64,000 bases of DNA, taken from an uncultured Hyphomicrobiales bacterium. GTDB lineage: Bacteria > Bacteroidota > Ignavibacteria > Kapaibacteriales > UBA2268. The notes under the pieces were generated by a model. It did not search any database, was not told the DNA's origin, and was given only the letters and a program-made list of their open reading frames with translations. The DNA is taken from assembly GCA_964544155.1 (NCBI GenBank), contig CAZJAH010000001.1:23304-87303 (forward strand), in the 5' to 3' direction. A program made the translations under genes and the position numbers. Positions within the stretch are counted from its first letter, which is position 1. Each line of letters starts with the position of its first letter. Below are positions 7,690 to 49,542 of the stretch, piece by piece.

Positions 7690-7887
7690 TTTACTGTTCC
7701 CCGGTTTTAGTTATGGATAAAATGTAAAGAACGACGCATTCATGGGGTTTTTCAGTACCTTAATCATGAATAAAACTATTAACGAATTTAAAAACTAATA
7801 TTATTAAAAAAAGGATACTAATTCGATATTTCTTATTTTTGCTATCAGAATTTTTTTTTAGCAGATAAAATTAACTGGCATTATAAA

Positions 7888-19309: not shown

Positions 19310-19361
19310 TATAAAAATCTCCGAATTTGAAATTTGTTTTAAAAAAAAATATATAAATTGT

Positions 19362-41948: not shown

Positions 41949-43709
41949 ATGCGCAAGAAAAATGAAATAGAAGCAGTACTTGACATTGATGAGAACTGGA
42001 AGCATTTTCTCGATAGTATTCAGTTGTTTACTCACCAAAGAAAAGCAACAGAGCGGATTTCCGAACTCATCAATCAGGGCCTGTACGTATTTTTGGAACT
42101 TCCCGAAGCCCGGAGCGCGACTCTTTATTTACTGAATGAAGACAGTTTTGATCTTGAATTCAGGGCAATTTTTCCTCCTCACTATAAGGAAGAATCCGAA
42201 CAGGATTTTGAAAATATGCTAAATGCCGGACATATAGGAAAAACTCTTGAATCCGGTTCTGTATCAATACTCAACGAATCTGAAAGCAACAGTATTAATC
42301 ATGTTGCAATACCATTAATTGTTTCCTGGGGAGTAATGGGATTGGTACTTATTAAAATGAATAAGCCCATCCAGGAGCTTCCTCAAATGAATATTTGGCT
42401 GATATCACTGCATAGCAGCCTTTTCGCGAGCTCCCTTGAAAATCACATCTTATTCGGAAATTTAAAGAAAACAAAAGAACTTCTGGCCCAAAAAATAGCT
42501 TTAAAAACCATGGATCTTACCCAAAGCCAGAGAGAACTTAAAGCGATAATAGATTCTATTCAGGCAGGGTTGCTTATTATCGATGCCAATACCGATAAGA
42601 TAATTAAATCAAATCCTGTAGCAACCGAAATGACTGGACACGAAGAAAACTCAATTATCAACCAGGATTATCGCTTATTCCTTGATGAGTATAAAATTGA
42701 TCCGGTTAAAACCGGAGACCTTTCCAAACCTGTTAAATTTGAATCAGTTATACATACTGCCACAGGAGAAAAAATACCCATACTCCGAACTGTGGCTTTA
42801 ACAAATCTCGGGCTTAAAAAATTCAGAATAGAGAGCTTTCTTGATATAACAGATAGAATTAAAGCGGAAAAAGAACTAAAAAAATCGAATGAACTGCTTG
42901 AAATAAGAGTCCAGGAAAAAACCATCGACCTTCACCTGCTTATACACAAACTAAAAGATGAGATTCGTGAAAGGGAAAACGCTCAGAAAGAACTTATTTC
43001 ACTTCTGGAAAGGGAAAAAGAACTGAATGAACTTAAAACCAGATTTGTCAGCATGATCTCACATGAATTTCGCACCCCGCTTACCATCATTAAGTCATCG
43101 GCGCAAATACTTGATAAATTTGGTGTTAACCTCGATTATAAAGAGCAGAAAGACTATCTTGAAAAAATTAAAACAACTGTAGATTACATCACAGATCTTA
43201 TAGAAAATGTTATATTCATAGGTAAGGCCGGCTCTGATAAGCTGGATACCAAACCTATTATTATAGATATCAGAAAATTTGCCGAAAATATCATAAATGA
43301 TATAAGACTTACGCTAAATAAAGAAAGACGGTTCGAAATTAATATATCAGGAGACCTGGAAAAAATCCAGCTCGATGACAGGTTATTAAGACTGATACTT
43401 GTAAACCTGATTTCGAACGCGGTTAAATATTCAAATGACGACAGTACGGTCGAACTGGAAATTATCGGCACAATAGATGAATTAAAATTCCACGTGAAAG
43501 ATCGCGGCATTGGAATTCCCGAAAAAGACCAAAAGAAAATATTCGAAATGTTTTACAGAGCTGAAAATGTCGGTTCAGTCACCGGCACAGGATTGGGCAT
43601 GGCAGTAGTGCTTCAATCGGTACAATTGATGAAGGGCAATATTAATTTGCAGAGCAAAACAAATGAAGGCACAGTTTTTACAATAACTTTACCAAAGCGG
43701 CTAAAATGA
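41949..43709 (+). CDS. Cytoplasmic sensor histidine kinase (GAF-like + PAS + HisKA + HATPase_c)
   Basis: PAS region (IIDSIQAGLLIIDANTDKII...). H-box ISHEFRTPLTII. Also N, G1 and G2 boxes (NLISNAVKYS, DRGIGIP, GTGLGMAV). No TM segments. Confidence 0.8.
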   Translation: MRKKNEIEAVLDIDENWKHFLDSIQLFTHQRKATERISELINQGLYVFLELPEARSATLYLLNEDSFDLEFRAIFPPHYKEESEQDFENMLNAGHIGKTLESGSVSILNESESNSINHVAIPLIVSWGVMGLVLIKMNKPIQELPQMNIWLISLHSSLFASSLENHILFGNLKKTKELLAQKIALKTMDLTQSQRELKAIIDSIQAGLLIIDANTDKIIKSNPVATEMTGHEENSIINQDYRLFLDEYKIDPVKTGDLSKPVKFESVIHTATGEKIPILRTVALTNLGLKKFRIESFLDITDRIKAEKELKKSNELLEIRVQEKTIDLHLLIHKLKDEIRERENAQKELISLLEREKELNELKTRFVSMISHEFRTPLTIIKSSAQILDKFGVNLDYKEQKDYLEKIKTTVDYITDLIENVIFIGKAGSDKLDTKPIIIDIRKFAENIINDIRLTLNKERRFEINISGDLEKIQLDDRLLRLILVNLISNAVKYSNDDSTVELEIIGTIDELKFHVKDRGIGIPEKDQKKIFEMFYRAENVGSVTGTGLGMAVVLQSVQLMKGNINLQSKTNEGTVFTITLPKRLK

Positions 43710-44806
43710 ATAAGAAAATACTAATAGTCGAGGATGAGAAAGATATACGTAAAGATCTGGTTAAAACTCTTCAGCTTTCTAACTATGAAACCGTAGATGC
43801 TGAAGACGGTTTACAGGGCCTTGAATTAGCAAAAGCGCATCATCCGGATCTTATAATATCAGATATCATGATGCCAAAATTTGATGGGTATAAACTTTTG
43901 GAAGAACTTCAAAAAGAACCTAATACCGCGGCTATACCCTTTTTATTCCTTACTGCCAAGTCCACAAAACCGGATATTCGAGAAGGTATAAACCTGGGAG
44001 CTGATTTTTACATAACAAAGCCCTATGATATAGACGAACTTCTCGAAGCAGTAAGAAGCAGGCTTAAGAAAAGCGAAGCAACTGAAAACTTATATAATCA
44101 CAAAATAGAAGAGATCACTTCTAATATACGTCGCTCTCTTCCCCATGAGATCAGAACGCCCTTAAATATTATCTTAGGATTTTCTGAGTTTCTGAGAAAG
44201 AATTATGACAAAACTTCACCGATTGATGCCAAAGAAATGCTAATGAATGTTTATGACAGCGGCAGAAGGCTTCATAAGCTGTTTGAGAACTACCTTTTCT
44301 ATGCTAATCTCGAAATTATTTCAAATAATCAGGAAGAGATAAACAATCTCCGGAATAAAAAGATGATCCTGTCTGAAAATACATTAAAGGACCATCTTCT
44401 ACATACTGCCGGTAATTACGGGCGCTCAGGCGATCTTGAACTTCAAATTCAGGATATCACACTTAATATGTCAGAAGAGTATTTTCTGAAAATGGTAGAG
44501 CACATTTTTGAAAACAGCCTGAAATTTTCAGACAGAGGCACAAAGATCCTAATTAGTTCCAGGCAAAAGGGATCCAGGTATACATTGACAATTACCGATA
44601 ATGGAAGAGGATTATCGGAAAAACAAATCAAAACCATGGGAGCTTACGTTCAATTTGAACGCAAAGTATATGAACAACAGGGTACCGGGCTCGGTATCGC
44701 TATTGTAAAACGAATAGTCAGGATATACAACGGCGAAATGATTTTCGACAGCAAACAAGGCAAATATACATCCGTAAGTTTAATTTTACCCTGTGAAAGA
44801 TCATAA
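43706..44806 (+). CDS. Hybrid response regulator (REC) fused to histidine-kinase core
   Basis: N-terminal REC (ILIVEDEKDIRKDL...LIISDIMMPKFDG...TKPYD), then H-box LPHEIRTPLNIILGFSEF and an HATPase (DNGRGLS...GTGLGIAIV). It overlaps the upstream kinase gene by 4 bp. Confidence 0.75.
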   Translation: MNKKILIVEDEKDIRKDLVKTLQLSNYETVDAEDGLQGLELAKAHHPDLIISDIMMPKFDGYKLLEELQKEPNTAAIPFLFLTAKSTKPDIREGINLGADFYITKPYDIDELLEAVRSRLKKSEATENLYNHKIEEITSNIRRSLPHEIRTPLNIILGFSEFLRKNYDKTSPIDAKEMLMNVYDSGRRLHKLFENYLFYANLEIISNNQEEINNLRNKKMILSENTLKDHLLHTAGNYGRSGDLELQIQDITLNMSEEYFLKMVEHIFENSLKFSDRGTKILISSRQKGSRYTLTITDNGRGLSEKQIKTMGAYVQFERKVYEQQGTGLGIAIVKRIVRIYNGEMIFDSKQGKYTSVSLILPCERS

Positions 44807-44809
44807 TTC

Positions 44810-45817
44810 ATGAACATTCTCTTTATCGGACCGCTTAAGTCATCCTTTGTTAAAAATGACATAGAAATACTTTCAGAAAAACATAGTTTAAGAAAGTATG
44901 ATACATCTATCGGACGAGGCCTTAAGGGCATGATCAATCTTATAAAGATCACCTTACAAACATTTTTTGAAGTATTCCGCAATGATGCCGTATTTTGCTG
45001 GTTTGCCGATTACACTACATTGGTTCCCGTTATAACAGCTAAATTATTAGGAAAGAAATCATACGTAATAGCAGGCGGATTTGATATATTAAATGTCCCT
45101 GAAATTGACAGCGGGGCTATAACCAGAAGAGGTCGTTGGTTCTGCGTAAGTAAAACATTTAAATATACAGATTTGATTTTCCCGGTTTCACAGTTTGCCG
45201 GCAATTCTCTGCATGAATTAACTAACGGTGACCATGCCAATTACACTGTTATTTATAATGGTGTAAAAACCGATAAGTTTATAAATTATAATTCTAAATG
45301 TATTAAGAGAAAATATATAACTACGGTATCACAAGCAGACACATACGTTGATTATCATATGAAGGGTAGTGACAGATTTATAAGGATAGCTTCTAAAATG
45401 CCTCATTTAGATTTTTTGTTACTCGGATTAAGAGGTAGCGCATATGATCTGGCAATAGAAGCTGCTAAAGGAATAAATAATATTGAAATAATAAAAGGTC
45501 CCCTTGATTTATATTCTGAAATCATACCTTATTATTATCGCAGCTATAGTTATGCTCAGCTATCTATAGCGGAATCATTTTGTATGGCTGTTGTTGAATC
45601 AATGGCTTGCGGCTGCATACCGGTAGTTAATAATGGAGGGGCACTGCCTGAGGTAGCTGGTGATGCTGGTTATGTTACAAATAATGATGATGAAATCATT
45701 ATTGCAATTAATAAATCCATTCATGCAACTAATGGACAAAGAGAAAAAGCAATTTCACAGTCCAAAAAGTTTGATATATCCATTAAAAGAAAAATATTAC
45801 TCGAAAAGGTAATCTAA
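44810..45817 (+). CDS. Glycosyltransferase, GT4 (GT-B) family
   Basis: C-terminal EX7E-like motif region ESFCMAVVESMACGCIPVV. N-terminus MNILFIGPL. Length 335 aa. Confidence 0.65.
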   Translation: MNILFIGPLKSSFVKNDIEILSEKHSLRKYDTSIGRGLKGMINLIKITLQTFFEVFRNDAVFCWFADYTTLVPVITAKLLGKKSYVIAGGFDILNVPEIDSGAITRRGRWFCVSKTFKYTDLIFPVSQFAGNSLHELTNGDHANYTVIYNGVKTDKFINYNSKCIKRKYITTVSQADTYVDYHMKGSDRFIRIASKMPHLDFLLLGLRGSAYDLAIEAAKGINNIEIIKGPLDLYSEIIPYYYRSYSYAQLSIAESFCMAVVESMACGCIPVVNNGGALPEVAGDAGYVTNNDDEIIIAINKSIHATNGQREKAISQSKKFDISIKRKILLEKVI

Positions 45818-46624
45818 TTGGAACACATTGAATTCAACATAAATGCCTATAAGAAATTCGCGCCCGAATACTTAAACAGACATCCGGAAATCTATAATGA
45901 TATTGAGCAGAATAGGATTGCAGCTAAAATCTATGTAGCTAAAGAAAGCATCCTAACAGGAAATAATCAACTCAGGGCCATGGATTACGGCTGCGGAGCC
46001 GGTAATTTGACTAACCACCTCTGCGGACTTGGCTTTGAGGTAACTTCAGGAGATGTTTCCGGTGAATTTCTTAAGATCATTAAAATGAATTTTTCTGATA
46101 ATTGTAAGGTGCATACCTTTAAGTTAAATGGAGAAGATCTAAGGGAATTACCGGATGATTCCTTCGACCTAATAGCCACCTACTCTGTTCTCCACCACAT
46201 CCCTGATTATTTAAGGGCTGTTAAGGATATGGCAAGAGTTGTAAAACCGGGTGGAATCCTTTATATCGACCATGAAGCAAGCCCTGAAAAATGGGAGAAC
46301 AATCATTATTACGAATTATTTACCAACCAAACAAAAGAGCCTTTCACGCCTGGTTTATTTCTCAATCTTTTAAAGCCCTCATGGTATGTTCGGAAGTACA
46401 AAAAAATTAAAAACCCCAGATGGCAGGCAGAAGGTGACATACATGTATGGCCGGATGACCATATTGAATGGGATAAGATCGAAGATCTATTAAAGGATAA
46501 TTTTGATTTTATATTAATTGAAGATTACCTTCATTATTCAAGAAATTACCCGCTGGATATTTATAATGAATTTAAAGATAAATGCTCTGACATGCGGGTA
46601 ATGATTTCGCGAAAAAAGAACTAG
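45818..46624 (+). CDS. Class I SAM-dependent methyltransferase
   Basis: Motif I DYGCGAGNLT, post-I acidic residue (SGDVS), motif II/III (FDLIATYSVLHHIPD; VKPGGILYI). It starts immediately after the glycosyltransferase gene. Confidence 0.75.
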   Translation: MEHIEFNINAYKKFAPEYLNRHPEIYNDIEQNRIAAKIYVAKESILTGNNQLRAMDYGCGAGNLTNHLCGLGFEVTSGDVSGEFLKIIKMNFSDNCKVHTFKLNGEDLRELPDDSFDLIATYSVLHHIPDYLRAVKDMARVVKPGGILYIDHEASPEKWENNHYYELFTNQTKEPFTPGLFLNLLKPSWYVRKYKKIKNPRWQAEGDIHVWPDDHIEWDKIEDLLKDNFDFILIEDYLHYSRNYPLDIYNEFKDKCSDMRVMISRKKN

Positions 46625-46625
46625 G

Positions 46626-47960
46626 CTATTTATAAGCTTCCGGAAGTTCATTTCCTGATTCAATAATTGCTTTTTTGATATTAAGGCTTAAAAGCATAAT
46701 AAATCCTACTACGAAGAATACTATCAATGATAGTATCGCTATCCTGTATGATCCCGTGAATTGCAGTGCCAGGCCAAAAATAAACGGCCCCAGCCAGCTT
46801 GTGCCGCGTTCACTTACTTCATAGAGGCTGAAATACTCTGATTCCCTGCCTTCGGGTATTAAAAGCGAATATAGAGATCGGCTGAGCGCCTGTGTACCGC
46901 CCAGAACAAGGCCTATCACAACACCCAGTATTAAAAATCCCGCCTCGCTATATAAAAAGCCGTAAGCAAATATTACAGCGCCCGACCAGATAACTAAACT
47001 TATAAGCAGAGCTTTCTTAGATGTGAATTGTCTGGCTAAATAGTTAAAAAGCAAAGCACCGCCGAATGCCACAAATTGTACTATTAGTATGGTCTGCGTT
47101 AGAGTCGACATTTCCAATCCCAGTTCTTCCTGCCCGAATTGCGCGGATAGAGCTATCACGGCCTGTACTCCGTCATTATAGAAAAGATATGCAGCCAGAA
47201 AGATCAGCGTTTTCGGATAATTCTTAGCGTTTTTTATAGTTCTGCCAAGCTGTGTAAATCCTATTGTGAACAGATTGCGGTTCTCTGGTATCTTCTGTTT
47301 CGCAATTCTTCGTTTCAAAACCATTAATGGGGCAATCGTGAATATTGCCCACCAGGCTCCTGCGCTTGCAAGGCTGATACGCACTGCCATCGATTCACTT
47401 ATGCCAATTTGTTCTGAATTCATAAACAACATGAGATTAAGAAGCAGCAGTATACCCCCGCCAAGATAGCCAATAGCCCACCCTATTGATGAAACCGAGT
47501 CCCTCCTGTCGGGTTCTGCCAGGTCAACAATAAAAGAATTATAAAATACTATAGAAGCGCCGAAGCTCAAATTAGCGATTATAAATAATAGCCCGCCATA
47601 CAGATAAGCCTCACCTTCTAAAAAATAAAGCCCCATTGTAGCAAAAGAGCCTATATAAGCAAAAAGCCCGAGGAAGAGCTTTTTCTGTTTTGTATAGTCC
47701 GCCATAGCGCCTGCCAGGGGTAATATGATTACCTGCAGGAGTACGGATAGTGAAACTATGAATGGAAAATACGAACCGGCAAATATATCGAATCCTAGTA
47801 TGCTAAGATTACCGGACGGACCTGCAGCGTTTTTGGCAATTGACGTGAGGTACGGCCCGATGAAAACGGTTATTACGGTAGTAGGAAAGGCCGAATTTGC
47901 CCAGTCATACAAATACCATGCAATTCTTTCTTTGCGGGTCGATCGCATTATTTTTTCCAA
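46626..47960 (-). CDS. MFS transporter (12 TM)
   Basis: Polytopic 444 aa with two 6-TM halves and an MFS-type loop after TM2 and TM8 (…GAMADYTKQKK…). Convergent with the methyltransferase gene; the stops are 1 bp apart. Confidence 0.7.
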   Translation of the reverse strand: MEKIMRSTRKERIAWYLYDWANSAFPTTVITVFIGPYLTSIAKNAAGPSGNLSILGFDIFAGSYFPFIVSLSVLLQVIILPLAGAMADYTKQKKLFLGLFAYIGSFATMGLYFLEGEAYLYGGLLFIIANLSFGASIVFYNSFIVDLAEPDRRDSVSSIGWAIGYLGGGILLLLNLMLFMNSEQIGISESMAVRISLASAGAWWAIFTIAPLMVLKRRIAKQKIPENRNLFTIGFTQLGRTIKNAKNYPKTLIFLAAYLFYNDGVQAVIALSAQFGQEELGLEMSTLTQTILIVQFVAFGGALLFNYLARQFTSKKALLISLVIWSGAVIFAYGFLYSEAGFLILGVVIGLVLGGTQALSRSLYSLLIPEGRESEYFSLYEVSERGTSWLGPFIFGLALQFTGSYRIAILSLIVFFVVGFIMLLSLNIKKAIIESGNELPEAYK

Positions 47961-48047
47961 TTATATTCCAAAACTGCTAATAAAACGAAAGTAATTGTTA
48001 ATTCGTTCGAATATGTGATATAATATTATGAAATTAACCGAATTTTT

Positions 48048-48707
48048 ATGAATAATTGCGTGCTTTCATGGAGCGGAGGTAAAGATAGTTCACTGGCCGC
48101 TTTTCTCGGCATAAACCGCGATGAGCTTAGTATAGGCAGGCTGGTTGCTACTATTGACGATAAAACCGGCAAAAATAAATTTCAGGGCGTGCCCCAACAC
48201 CTGCTTGAAAAACAAGCGGAATTGATGAATAAGCCAATCGACATTATCAGGCTGCCTGAGAACTGCCCAAATAAGGAATACATCAAGATCATGAAAGATA
48301 TGTATGATAACTACCGCGAAGATGGCTATCAAGCGGTTGTTTATGGAGATATTTATCTGGAAGACATAAAGAAATTCAGAGAAACAAAGATACACATTGA
48401 TTCGATCGGTTCCGCCTATCCACTGTGGGGTATGAGTACGCAATCTTTGGCTGAACTTTTTATCGACGCGGGGTTTAAAGCCGTGATCACGGCAATTGAC
48501 ACAGAACAGCTACCGGAAGATATTCTCGGCAGGCAGTTTGATAAGCAGTTCCTCGATGATCTGCCCCCATCCTGCGATCCCTGCGGGGAAAATGGCGAAT
48601 ACCACAGTTTTGTGTACGATGGGCCGATATTTACAAATCAAGTAAAATATACCACTGGTAAAAAGTATTCTGAGATGAACAGATTTAAGTACATTGAAAT
48701 AAAATGA
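48048..48707 (+). CDS. PP-loop ATP pyrophosphatase, Dph6/MJ0570-like (diphthine-ammonia ligase-related, COG2102)
   Basis: N-terminal PP-loop SWSGGKDS. The EYHSFVYDGP C-terminal motif is typical of the MJ0570 family. Length 219 aa. Confidence 0.75.
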   Translation: MNNCVLSWSGGKDSSLAAFLGINRDELSIGRLVATIDDKTGKNKFQGVPQHLLEKQAELMNKPIDIIRLPENCPNKEYIKIMKDMYDNYREDGYQAVVYGDIYLEDIKKFRETKIHIDSIGSAYPLWGMSTQSLAELFIDAGFKAVITAIDTEQLPEDILGRQFDKQFLDDLPPSCDPCGENGEYHSFVYDGPIFTNQVKYTTGKKYSEMNRFKYIEIK

Positions 48708-49143
48708 TACCCGAAAAAGCATCTTACTTGTTACTTATTGAATTAAACGCTCAATCGTTAGTTCAGGTTGGCAGAAAAGGTCTTTTTTTTTTGATGAAGG
48801 CTATTATATCTATGCCGGTAGCGCACTCAAAAACGCGCCATCGAGAATAAAAAGGCATTTTTCGAATGAAAAGAAATTGAAGTGGCACATTGATTTTTTA
48901 CTGAATAATGAACTCTCCGAACTAAAAAAAGCTTTTATCATCGAATGCAATGAAAGTCTTGAATGTACTTTAAATTCTATAGTTCAAAAATCTCGGCATT
49001 TCGCGGCCGCGTATAAAGGTTTCGGTTCTTCGGATTGTAAAGTGTGCTATTCTCATTTAAGCAGGTACACCTCAGATTCGGATATTAATATAATAATACC
49101 TGAATTACTCAGCCCTTTTCCATTCCTGGCTTTTGCCGAATAA
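48704..49143 (+). pseudogene. DUF123 / Uri-superfamily (GIY-YIG-like) endonuclease gene interrupted by a -1 frameshift in a T10 homopolymer at 48783..48792
   Basis: Frame A from ATG 48704 (overlapping the upstream stop as ATGA) gives MIPEKASYLLLIELNAQSLVQVGRKGLFF. Frame B continues DEGYYIYAGSALKNAPSRIKRHF...WHIDFLL...GFGSSDCKVCYSHL, the hallmark DUF123 motifs. The two frames join across the T10 run. The ORF track shows only the 3' part, 48877..49143. Confidence 0.7.
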
Positions 49144-49542
49144 TGGCAGCCCTATATACCCTCGCACTTCAAGGATTTTGCCCTTATCTTTTAATTCAAG
49201 TTTAGAGCTATATGTTTTGCCGCTCCGCGGATCATAGATTTCTCCGTCAACCCACTGATCGTCTTTATTGTCGTATTTGAAATTCTTTAAAATTCGAAGC
49301 CCTACAAGCTTGCGGCCTCTTTTTTCGGGATCCGGATTCTTGATGTCATTTTCCGGGGGTCCGCCTTCTTCGCCGATATTGTCCATCCAGAAAATCTCTC
49401 CGTGGTAGCGGCCATTTTCTTTATATATTTTTACTTTCCCTTTTTCATCTTCAGTAAACCATATTCCGGAGATTTCATCCGCATCAGAGAATATTACTAC
49501 AGGGAAAAGCAAAAGCATTACAACTAAAATAATTGATCGCAT
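49105..49542 (-). CDS. DUF2147 domain secreted protein
   Basis: Signal peptide followed by the GIWFTEDEKGKVKIY...GEIFW...DPRSGKTYSSKLEL pattern typical of DUF2147. Length 145 aa. Confidence 0.6.
   Translation of the reverse strand: MRSIILVVMLLLFPVVIFSDADEISGIWFTEDEKGKVKIYKENGRYHGEIFWMDNIGEEGGPPENDIKNPDPEKRGRKLVGLRILKNFKYDNKDDQWVDGEIYDPRSGKTYSSKLELKDKGKILEVRGYIGLPLFGKSQEWKRAE

Follow-up and report, generated by a model that had tools for sequence, protein, structure and literature searches.

A probable, very recent loss-of-function allele of a DUF123 gene, polymorphic within one Candidatus Kapaibacterium species

The locus described here raises the question of why a small DUF123 gene, which starts within the end of a PP-loop ATP pyrophosphatase gene, loses its reading frame inside a run of ten thymines. 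It lies in what we call the window, the whole 64 kb stretch of DNA that was analysed. The first-pass annotation had read the two genes as an archaeal-type pair, and for the break it had offered sequencing error, slipped-strand phase variation or very recent pseudogenisation. Only the last of these agrees well with our data, as near-identical strains carry an intact gene of 146 aa. We put at about 0.78 the probability that an accessory gene is polymorphic within one Candidatus Kapaibacterium species (Bacteroidota, family Kapaibacteriaceae) and that the window holds a real loss-of-function allele of it, of very recent origin. Its significance is mostly for annotation, the polymorphism being an ordinary gene-inactivating one in a known family.

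Table 1. Position of the DUF123 gene, its T10 tract and the neighbouring genes in the window
Feature	Coordinates	Strand	Basis or comment
UMF1/ATG22-type MFS transporter gene, divergent	46626..47948	-	Context; synteny anchor for sister strains and ~70% relatives
PP-loop ATP pyrophosphatase gene	48048..48707	+	Intact 219 aa ORF; PF01902, MJ0570/Dph6-like family
ATGA overlap, DUF123 start codon / PP-loop stop codon	48704..48707	+	Sequence
DUF123 5' part, frame A	48704..48789	+	Translation, alignments, AF2 model
T10 tract	48783..48792	+	One A lost between 48789 and 48790; five-way alignment, difference list
DUF123 3' part, -1 frame	48790..49143	+	Translation; stop 49141-49143
DUF2147 gene, convergent	49105..49542	-	Context; 3' end overlaps DUF123 3' end by 39 nt (49105-49143)

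The interrupted gene and its family

The PP-loop open reading frame, the ATGA overlap and the -1 break inside the T10 tract, as first described, are all borne out by the sequence (Table 1). In frame A, the 28 residues MIPEKASYLLLIELNAQSLVQVGRKGLF, the invariant Tyr8 among them, agree with the intact allele of sister strains and are predicted to form the first two strands and to begin the third; the AF2 model places the strands of this N-terminal part at residues 6-14, 18-22 and 26-30. Beyond the tract, frame A is out of frame and reaches a stop at 48848-48850, giving a product of 48 aa. The -1 frame reads, from F30 on, FDEGYYIYAGSA ... GFGSSDCKVCYSHL ..., within which the family-conserved sequence is DEGYYIYAGSA ... 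RIKRHF ... WHIDFLL ... GFGSSDCKVCYSHL. Adding one base in the tract yields a repaired protein of 146 aa, equal in length to its homologues, which matches PF01986 (DUF123) over residues 30-120 (76.7 bits, cut-off 25; E=2.1e-21). A precomputed PF01986 match is also carried by the intact allele.

Both halves were said to retain the family motifs, and across them all of the invariant columns of a 9-sequence alignment are indeed kept (21/21). Invariant in this alignment are H52 and the GIY-YIG core residues (two Tyr-containing strands, an Arg and a Glu) Y8, Y37-x-G39-S40, R48 and E87, whose putative catalytic roles follow PMC1564403, and C88 together with GFGSSDC112-x2-C115-x2-H118 forms a conserved C-terminal His/Cys cluster. 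From its sequence, the ancestral protein is a putative nuclease. A PDB sequence search with the DUF123 profile found no relative. In the classification of Dunin-Horkawicz et al. 2006 (PMC1564403), COG1833 comprises 'orthodox' stand-alone GIY-YIG proteins with a His/Cys-rich C-terminus, mainly archaeal at that time and with no biochemically characterised member, for which a role in repair was proposed from a fusion to endonuclease III in Methanococcales.

The frame break was compared with the rest of the family by an alignment-seeded scan of one genome per species, in which 477 genomes held a DUF123 relative; single-sequence scans of genome and metagenome contigs returned no close DUF123 relatives, and the 9-sequence alignment was too diverse to serve as seed. 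The break falls in the conserved F-x-F of the third strand. At the equivalent site, none of the other loci has a frame break (87/87 non-self loci are single-frame), and the longest homopolymer there is 7 nt. Judged from these loci, the break is not a feature of the DUF123 family. The closest true homologues (P0003, about 47% identity) are found on marine metagenome contigs (L005-L009), in a conserved block whose order is S24/LexA-like repressor, VTT-domain protein, DUF123, a convergent T4-endoV-like Pyr_excise gene, DUF2924 and a large serine recombinase; from its gene content, this block resembles an integrative element, with genes that hint at UV repair.

Two alleles within one species

Sister strains were recovered by searching with the flanking MFS gene and retrieving the contigs on which an identical MFS protein is encoded. 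In the five-way alignment, the site reads C-TTTTTTTTTT-G in the window, in a Logan contig of SRR11308339 (L001; 2 mismatches to the window in 10.6 kb) and in the Candidatus Kapaibacterium sp. MAG GCA_046542895.1 (L002; 3 mismatches in 12.4 kb). In GCA_046541695.1 (L095) and Logan SRR19844289 (L096) it reads C-T7-A-T3-G, that is CTT TTT TTA TTT GAT, encoding L F L F D. Gene calls on both of the latter give an intact DUF123 gene of 146 aa that shares 4 nt with the end of the PP-loop gene; the NCBI annotation of L095 has the identical overlap (genes 1805-2245 and 2242-2901), and the intact protein is present in GenBank as MFP4368394.1 (P0250). The protein encoded by the DUF123 3' part of the window is identical to it, the lone nucleotide difference being a synonymous SNP at 49044. 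T11 or T8, put forward earlier as the intact state, is ruled out by the 11-nt T7-A-T3 stretch of the sister allele.

The two haplotype groups of this species are about 99.85% identical. Besides 49044, the SNPs linked to haplotype are 48286, which changes K80 to R in the PP-loop protein, and 48641 and 48644, both synonymous; at site 48513 (P156S), each group is itself polymorphic. In view of the linkage between the indel and four SNPs close to it, we regard the frameshift as real, recent and strain-level, and because the DUF123 alleles differ by one other substitution, which is synonymous, the break appears to be very recent. Tract length per sample was read from consensus assemblies, and within a haplotype the MAG and the Logan contig may derive from shared reads, so that the independent observations per allele possibly amount to as few as one or two data sets. 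A literature search found no paper for the SRA and assembly accessions, and its DUF123 queries were uninformative.

If the break were a sequencing or assembly artefact, the true sequence would be T7-A-T3 (or T11) in all strains and T10 would be a miscall. Such an error would have a natural place to arise, as T10 is the sole 10-nt homopolymer and the longest homopolymer of the window, and long homopolymers are a classic site of indel errors. However, T10 is found in three assemblies from at least two pipelines, each allele occurs in both a submitted MAG and a Logan contig, and MAGs of the adjacent accession series JBKHAM and JBKHCU, presumably of the same submission, carry different alleles. 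A miscall, whether random or systematic, would likewise not be expected to be linked to four SNPs within about 800 bp. Logan assembly relies on exact k-mers that are observed repeatedly, and a contig of 86 kb implies accurate reads. Coding sequence makes up 92% of the window, which has 54 long ORFs. The assembly is not noisy, because about 45 homopolymers of 7-8 nt lie in frame within uninterrupted ORFs and no gene other than DUF123 is broken. With the indel linked to SNPs and recovered by different assemblers, sequencing error, the first of the explanations offered, is unlikely.

Slipped-strand phase variation would make the tract an ON/OFF contingency switch of a potentially toxic nuclease. 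A homopolymer of at least 9 nt early in the ORF (codons 27-30) would suit such a switch, runs of this kind are hypermutable (PMC1088944), and a single species contains the ON as well as the OFF state. Yet the ON allele is an interrupted T7-A-T3, so that the alleles differ by the loss of an A and not by a change of repeat unit from Tn to Tn+1; the state is tied to the flanking SNP haplotype and does not vary freely, no T9 or T11 was seen among 5-6 assemblies, and the tract is absent from 87/87 other DUF123 loci. We therefore consider this proposal of the first-pass annotation improbable.

A recent loss-of-function allele, our preferred reading, could have arisen as follows. The ancestral gene would have encoded a DUF123/COG1833 protein of 146 aa, assigned to the GIY-YIG nuclease superfamily and bearing a C-terminal Cys/His cluster, and would have stood directly downstream of a divergent PF01902 gene and overlapped it by ATGA, in one species only. 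In the lineage of the window, a single A would have been lost from T7-A-T3, fusing the T runs to T10 and putting everything past codon 29 into the -1 frame. Normal decoding would then yield the 48 aa product, which is limited to strands 1 and 2 and a portion of strand 3 of the core sheet and should be inactive. Parsimony and family conservation point to a change from intact to broken.

The T10 allele is represented in GenBank by MFP4542719.1 ('GIY-YIG nuclease family protein', 133 aa), which corresponds to 48742-49143 of the window and 6001-6402 of L002. Called from a non-canonical ATT start at 48742 and with its first 17 residues (MKRSIVSSGWQKRSFFF) out of frame, it is a mis-annotated fragment of the frameshifted gene. 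This protein (P0001, 94% identical) was considered as an intact orthologue and rejected, being the frame-B ORF of the T10 allele.

The PP-loop gene and the question of a gene pair

The PP-loop protein matches Pfam PF01902 with 110.9 bits (cut-off 23.2; E=8.6e-32), and the COG2102-type assignment made at first pass thus stands, as does that to DUF123. Against the archaeal Dph6 equivalog TIGR03679 it reaches 80.8 bits, and because this is under the equivalog cut-off of 197.3, it is best described from its sequence as a member of the PF01902 family only and not as a Dph6 orthologue. To our knowledge, the diphthamide target is absent from bacteria, which rules out a role of this bacterial protein as diphthine-ammonia ligase. 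"Diphthine--ammonia ligase" names on bacterial PF01902 proteins are an over-annotation.

The SGGKDS motif is present (SWSGGKDSS, residues 7-15), and W8-S14 is invariant in an alignment of the protein with its close homologues. Homologues number more than 3000; among the matches listed, the best identity outside the species is at most 46%, and all are bacterial where an organism name is given. A block that is invariant in the closest bacterial TIGR00290-type homologues, TTxTxxYDRISMHG (residues 34-47), is not kept: at 48147-48185 (residues 34-46) the window reads ATIDDKTGKNKFQG in place of the consensus, with T34A, T37D, R42K, S44K, M45F and H46Q set against 15-16 of the 16 closest bacterial homologues. 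SGGKDS and the C-terminal motif DPCGENGEYHSFVYDGPIF are retained despite this altered block, which, on sequence grounds, could reflect a changed substrate or a decaying enzyme. A perfect TATAAT hexamer at 48019-48024, 24 nt upstream of the PP-loop ATG, sits in the 87-nt divergent intergenic region common to the PP-loop and MFS genes and is a possible promoter of the two-gene unit.

The view that both families are predominantly archaeal did not hold. Going by record titles, bacteria account for about 41 and archaea for about 38 of the 80 best DUF123 genome loci, drawn from 477 species genomes with a relative, the bacterial carriers including Ignavibacteria, another Kapaibacterium, Dehalococcoidia, Calditrichaceae, Scalindua/Brocadia, SAR116, Bacillota and others; for the PP-loop protein, the listed matches named by organism are, as said, bacterial throughout. 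The 2006 view of COG1833 as essentially archaeal is outdated, reflecting the few genomes then available.

Nor did the notion of an archaeal-type pair survive, the two families being widespread and unlinked. No PP-loop gene was found within 4 kb of DUF123 at any of 87 non-self loci (tblastn; only the self loci matched). Conversely, no DUF123 gene was detected near the PP-loop gene at 80 metagenome loci (tblastn and HMM) or on the contigs of the two closest PP-loop homologues (0/7, tblastn). A Pfam scan of 127 ORFs flanking DUF123 identified no PF01902 and no conserved functional partner; the lone recurrent neighbour was DUF371, with 11 cases in methanogens. A relative with a ~70% identical MFS protein (loci L098 and L099) keeps the MacB-MacB...MFS synteny, and in its slot a peptidase M15 gene, joined in L099 by a DUF559 fragment, replaces DUF2147, DUF123 and the PP-loop gene. 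By tblastn, neither of the latter two was found at this syntenic position, which represents one informative relative genome; another relative, L097, is uninformative for the slot, its contig ending too near the MFS gene. Because the adjacency was seen nowhere else among the loci examined and is absent from the informative relative, the juxtaposition is, as far as these genomes tell, specific to the Kapaibacterium species and located in a variable slot.

Two further observations concern these surroundings. In JGI assembly 3300071328 (L098 1096-3587), both MacB-type permease genes are interrupted, leaving four fragments of 367, 68, 129 and 295 aa, and in a near-identical contig from 3300072073 (L099 963-3454) both are intact, with 417 and 409 aa; the cause is either frame errors in the assembly or a further disruption at strain level. 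In the window, five consecutive upstream genes (41949-46624), including two sensor kinase/response-regulator genes, a glycosyltransferase and a methyltransferase, have a markedly low GC content of 0.34-0.37, at or below the level of DUF123, the mean of the window being 0.415; the counterpart of this region in the 70% relative L097 differs in gene content, an epimerase gene and a further glycosyltransferase gene being inserted there.

A functional two-gene system of archaeal origin, acquired as a unit and acting as a modification/restriction-like or repair module, would be consistent with the ATGA overlap, which implies co-transcription and possibly coupling, and with the position of the pair, which occupies a variable slot flanked by conserved MacB and MFS genes and is missing from the informative relative. 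Against it stand the absence of co-occurrence elsewhere (0/87 DUF123 loci, 0/87 PP-loop loci), the heterogeneous neighbours of DUF123, the frequency of both families in bacteria, and a GC3 of 0.47 for the PP-loop gene and 0.33 for DUF123, which weighs weakly against a common recent origin. Neither protein matches PADLOC or PHROGs, and readings as a defence system or as phage genes were accordingly set aside as unsupported. Overall, we judge such an acquired module very unlikely. Horizontal transfer was also not adopted on compositional grounds, the signal being weak: the PP-loop gene is typical of the window (GC z of +0.4), and DUF123 (z of -2.2) is moderately AT-rich, as are several nearby genes.

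Slippage at the T10 tract and comparison with known systems

Transcription and replication both tend to slip on A/T runs of about 9 or more, and coding regions avoid such runs (PMC1088944; PMC5009743). In the window, runs of at least 9 nt are absent from coding sequence, T10 excepted, the two others (7851-7859 and 19341-19349) being intergenic. From the literature, T10 would be long enough for RNA-polymerase slippage, giving U11 transcripts, or for a -1 ribosomal slip, and either event would yield a fraction of full-length protein in which the position of the L29F change varies. The T10 allele, with its one extra substitution only, possibly stays functional in this way; leaky expression and reversion to T11 seem plausible.

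It is a different matter whether such expression is programmed, such that the T10 allele makes full-length nuclease through -1 frameshifting on U_UUU_UUU or programmed transcriptional slippage. The deletion has created a perfect zero-frame X_XXY_YYZ heptamer, U_UUU_UUU at 48784-48790, at which a -1 slip gives LFFFDEG, the correct frame and a protein of homologue length, and at least 9 T support RNA-polymerase slippage in many bacteria. Yet the ancestor needs no recoding, as the sister strain is single-frame, and the site is not conserved in the DUF123 family. A search for a stimulatory structure downstream was negative: in the predicted fold of 48770-48900, it is the U tract itself that pairs with an A-rich stretch farther on (z=-2.0), and 9/200 shuffles fold equally well. 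In dnaX-type frameshifting, the upstream SD-like stimulator is spaced 10-14 nt from the slip site; on reading the sequence, AAGG at 48777-48780 is too near the heptamer for stimulation of this type. Further, U_UUU_UUU is far less shift-prone in E. coli than A_AAA_AAG (PMC5009743). Programmed recoding is hence highly unlikely in our estimation.

The deletion might alternatively have been selected, T10 cutting expression of a potentially harmful GIY-YIG nuclease to the small slippage-rescued fraction with the option of reverting to T11. We hold this to be improbable, and T10 looks neither selected nor programmed; if true, it would mean a newly born contingency or compensatory-frameshift site beside its uninterrupted ancestor in the same population. 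The paired alleles offer a small natural experiment on slippage in uncultured Bacteroidota, the same gene being present with and without a fresh T10.

Among known systems, the DUF123 protein is closest to COG1833/PF01986, to which it is alike in size (about 115-150 aa), in its Pfam match (E=2e-21) and in sharing Tyr8, Tyr37-x-Gly39-Ser40, Arg48, His52, Glu87 and GFGSSDC-x2-C-x2-HL; its predicted fold may resemble the GIY-YIG domains of I-TevI, Slx1 and UvrC. Unlike COG1833 as described, the copy in the window is bacterial (Bacteroidota, Kapaibacteriaceae) and frameshifted. It also has a 27-residue C-terminal tail past most homologues, and its identity outside its own species is at most 48%. 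The AF2 model folds this tail confidently, with a helix at 128-135 and a strand at 142-144.

The PP-loop protein belongs with the PF01902/TIGR00290 MJ0570-like PP-loop ATP pyrophosphatases, a family that includes the archaeal/eukaryotic Dph6 diphthine-ammonia ligase and whose solved members PF0828 (3RJZ) and PH1257 (2D13) are the structures nearest to it. It has in common with them SGGKDS and the C-terminal DPCGENGE(F/Y)HSFVYDGPIF. It is 40-46% identical to bacterial homologues and differs from them in the replaced 34-46 block, which does not vary in 16/16 of them.

With regard to the tract itself, the nearest comparison is with A/T-homopolymer indels whose effect is offset in part by polymerase infidelity, such as the poly(A) tracts of Buchnera and Blochmannia, and with 'compensatory' frameshifting (reviewed in PMC5009743). 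As in those cases, a run of at least 9 T in a coding region coincides with a 1-nt indel, and slippage could restore the frame. In contrast to them, the tract described here would itself have been born of the inactivating deletion, and the intact allele still circulates in the species.
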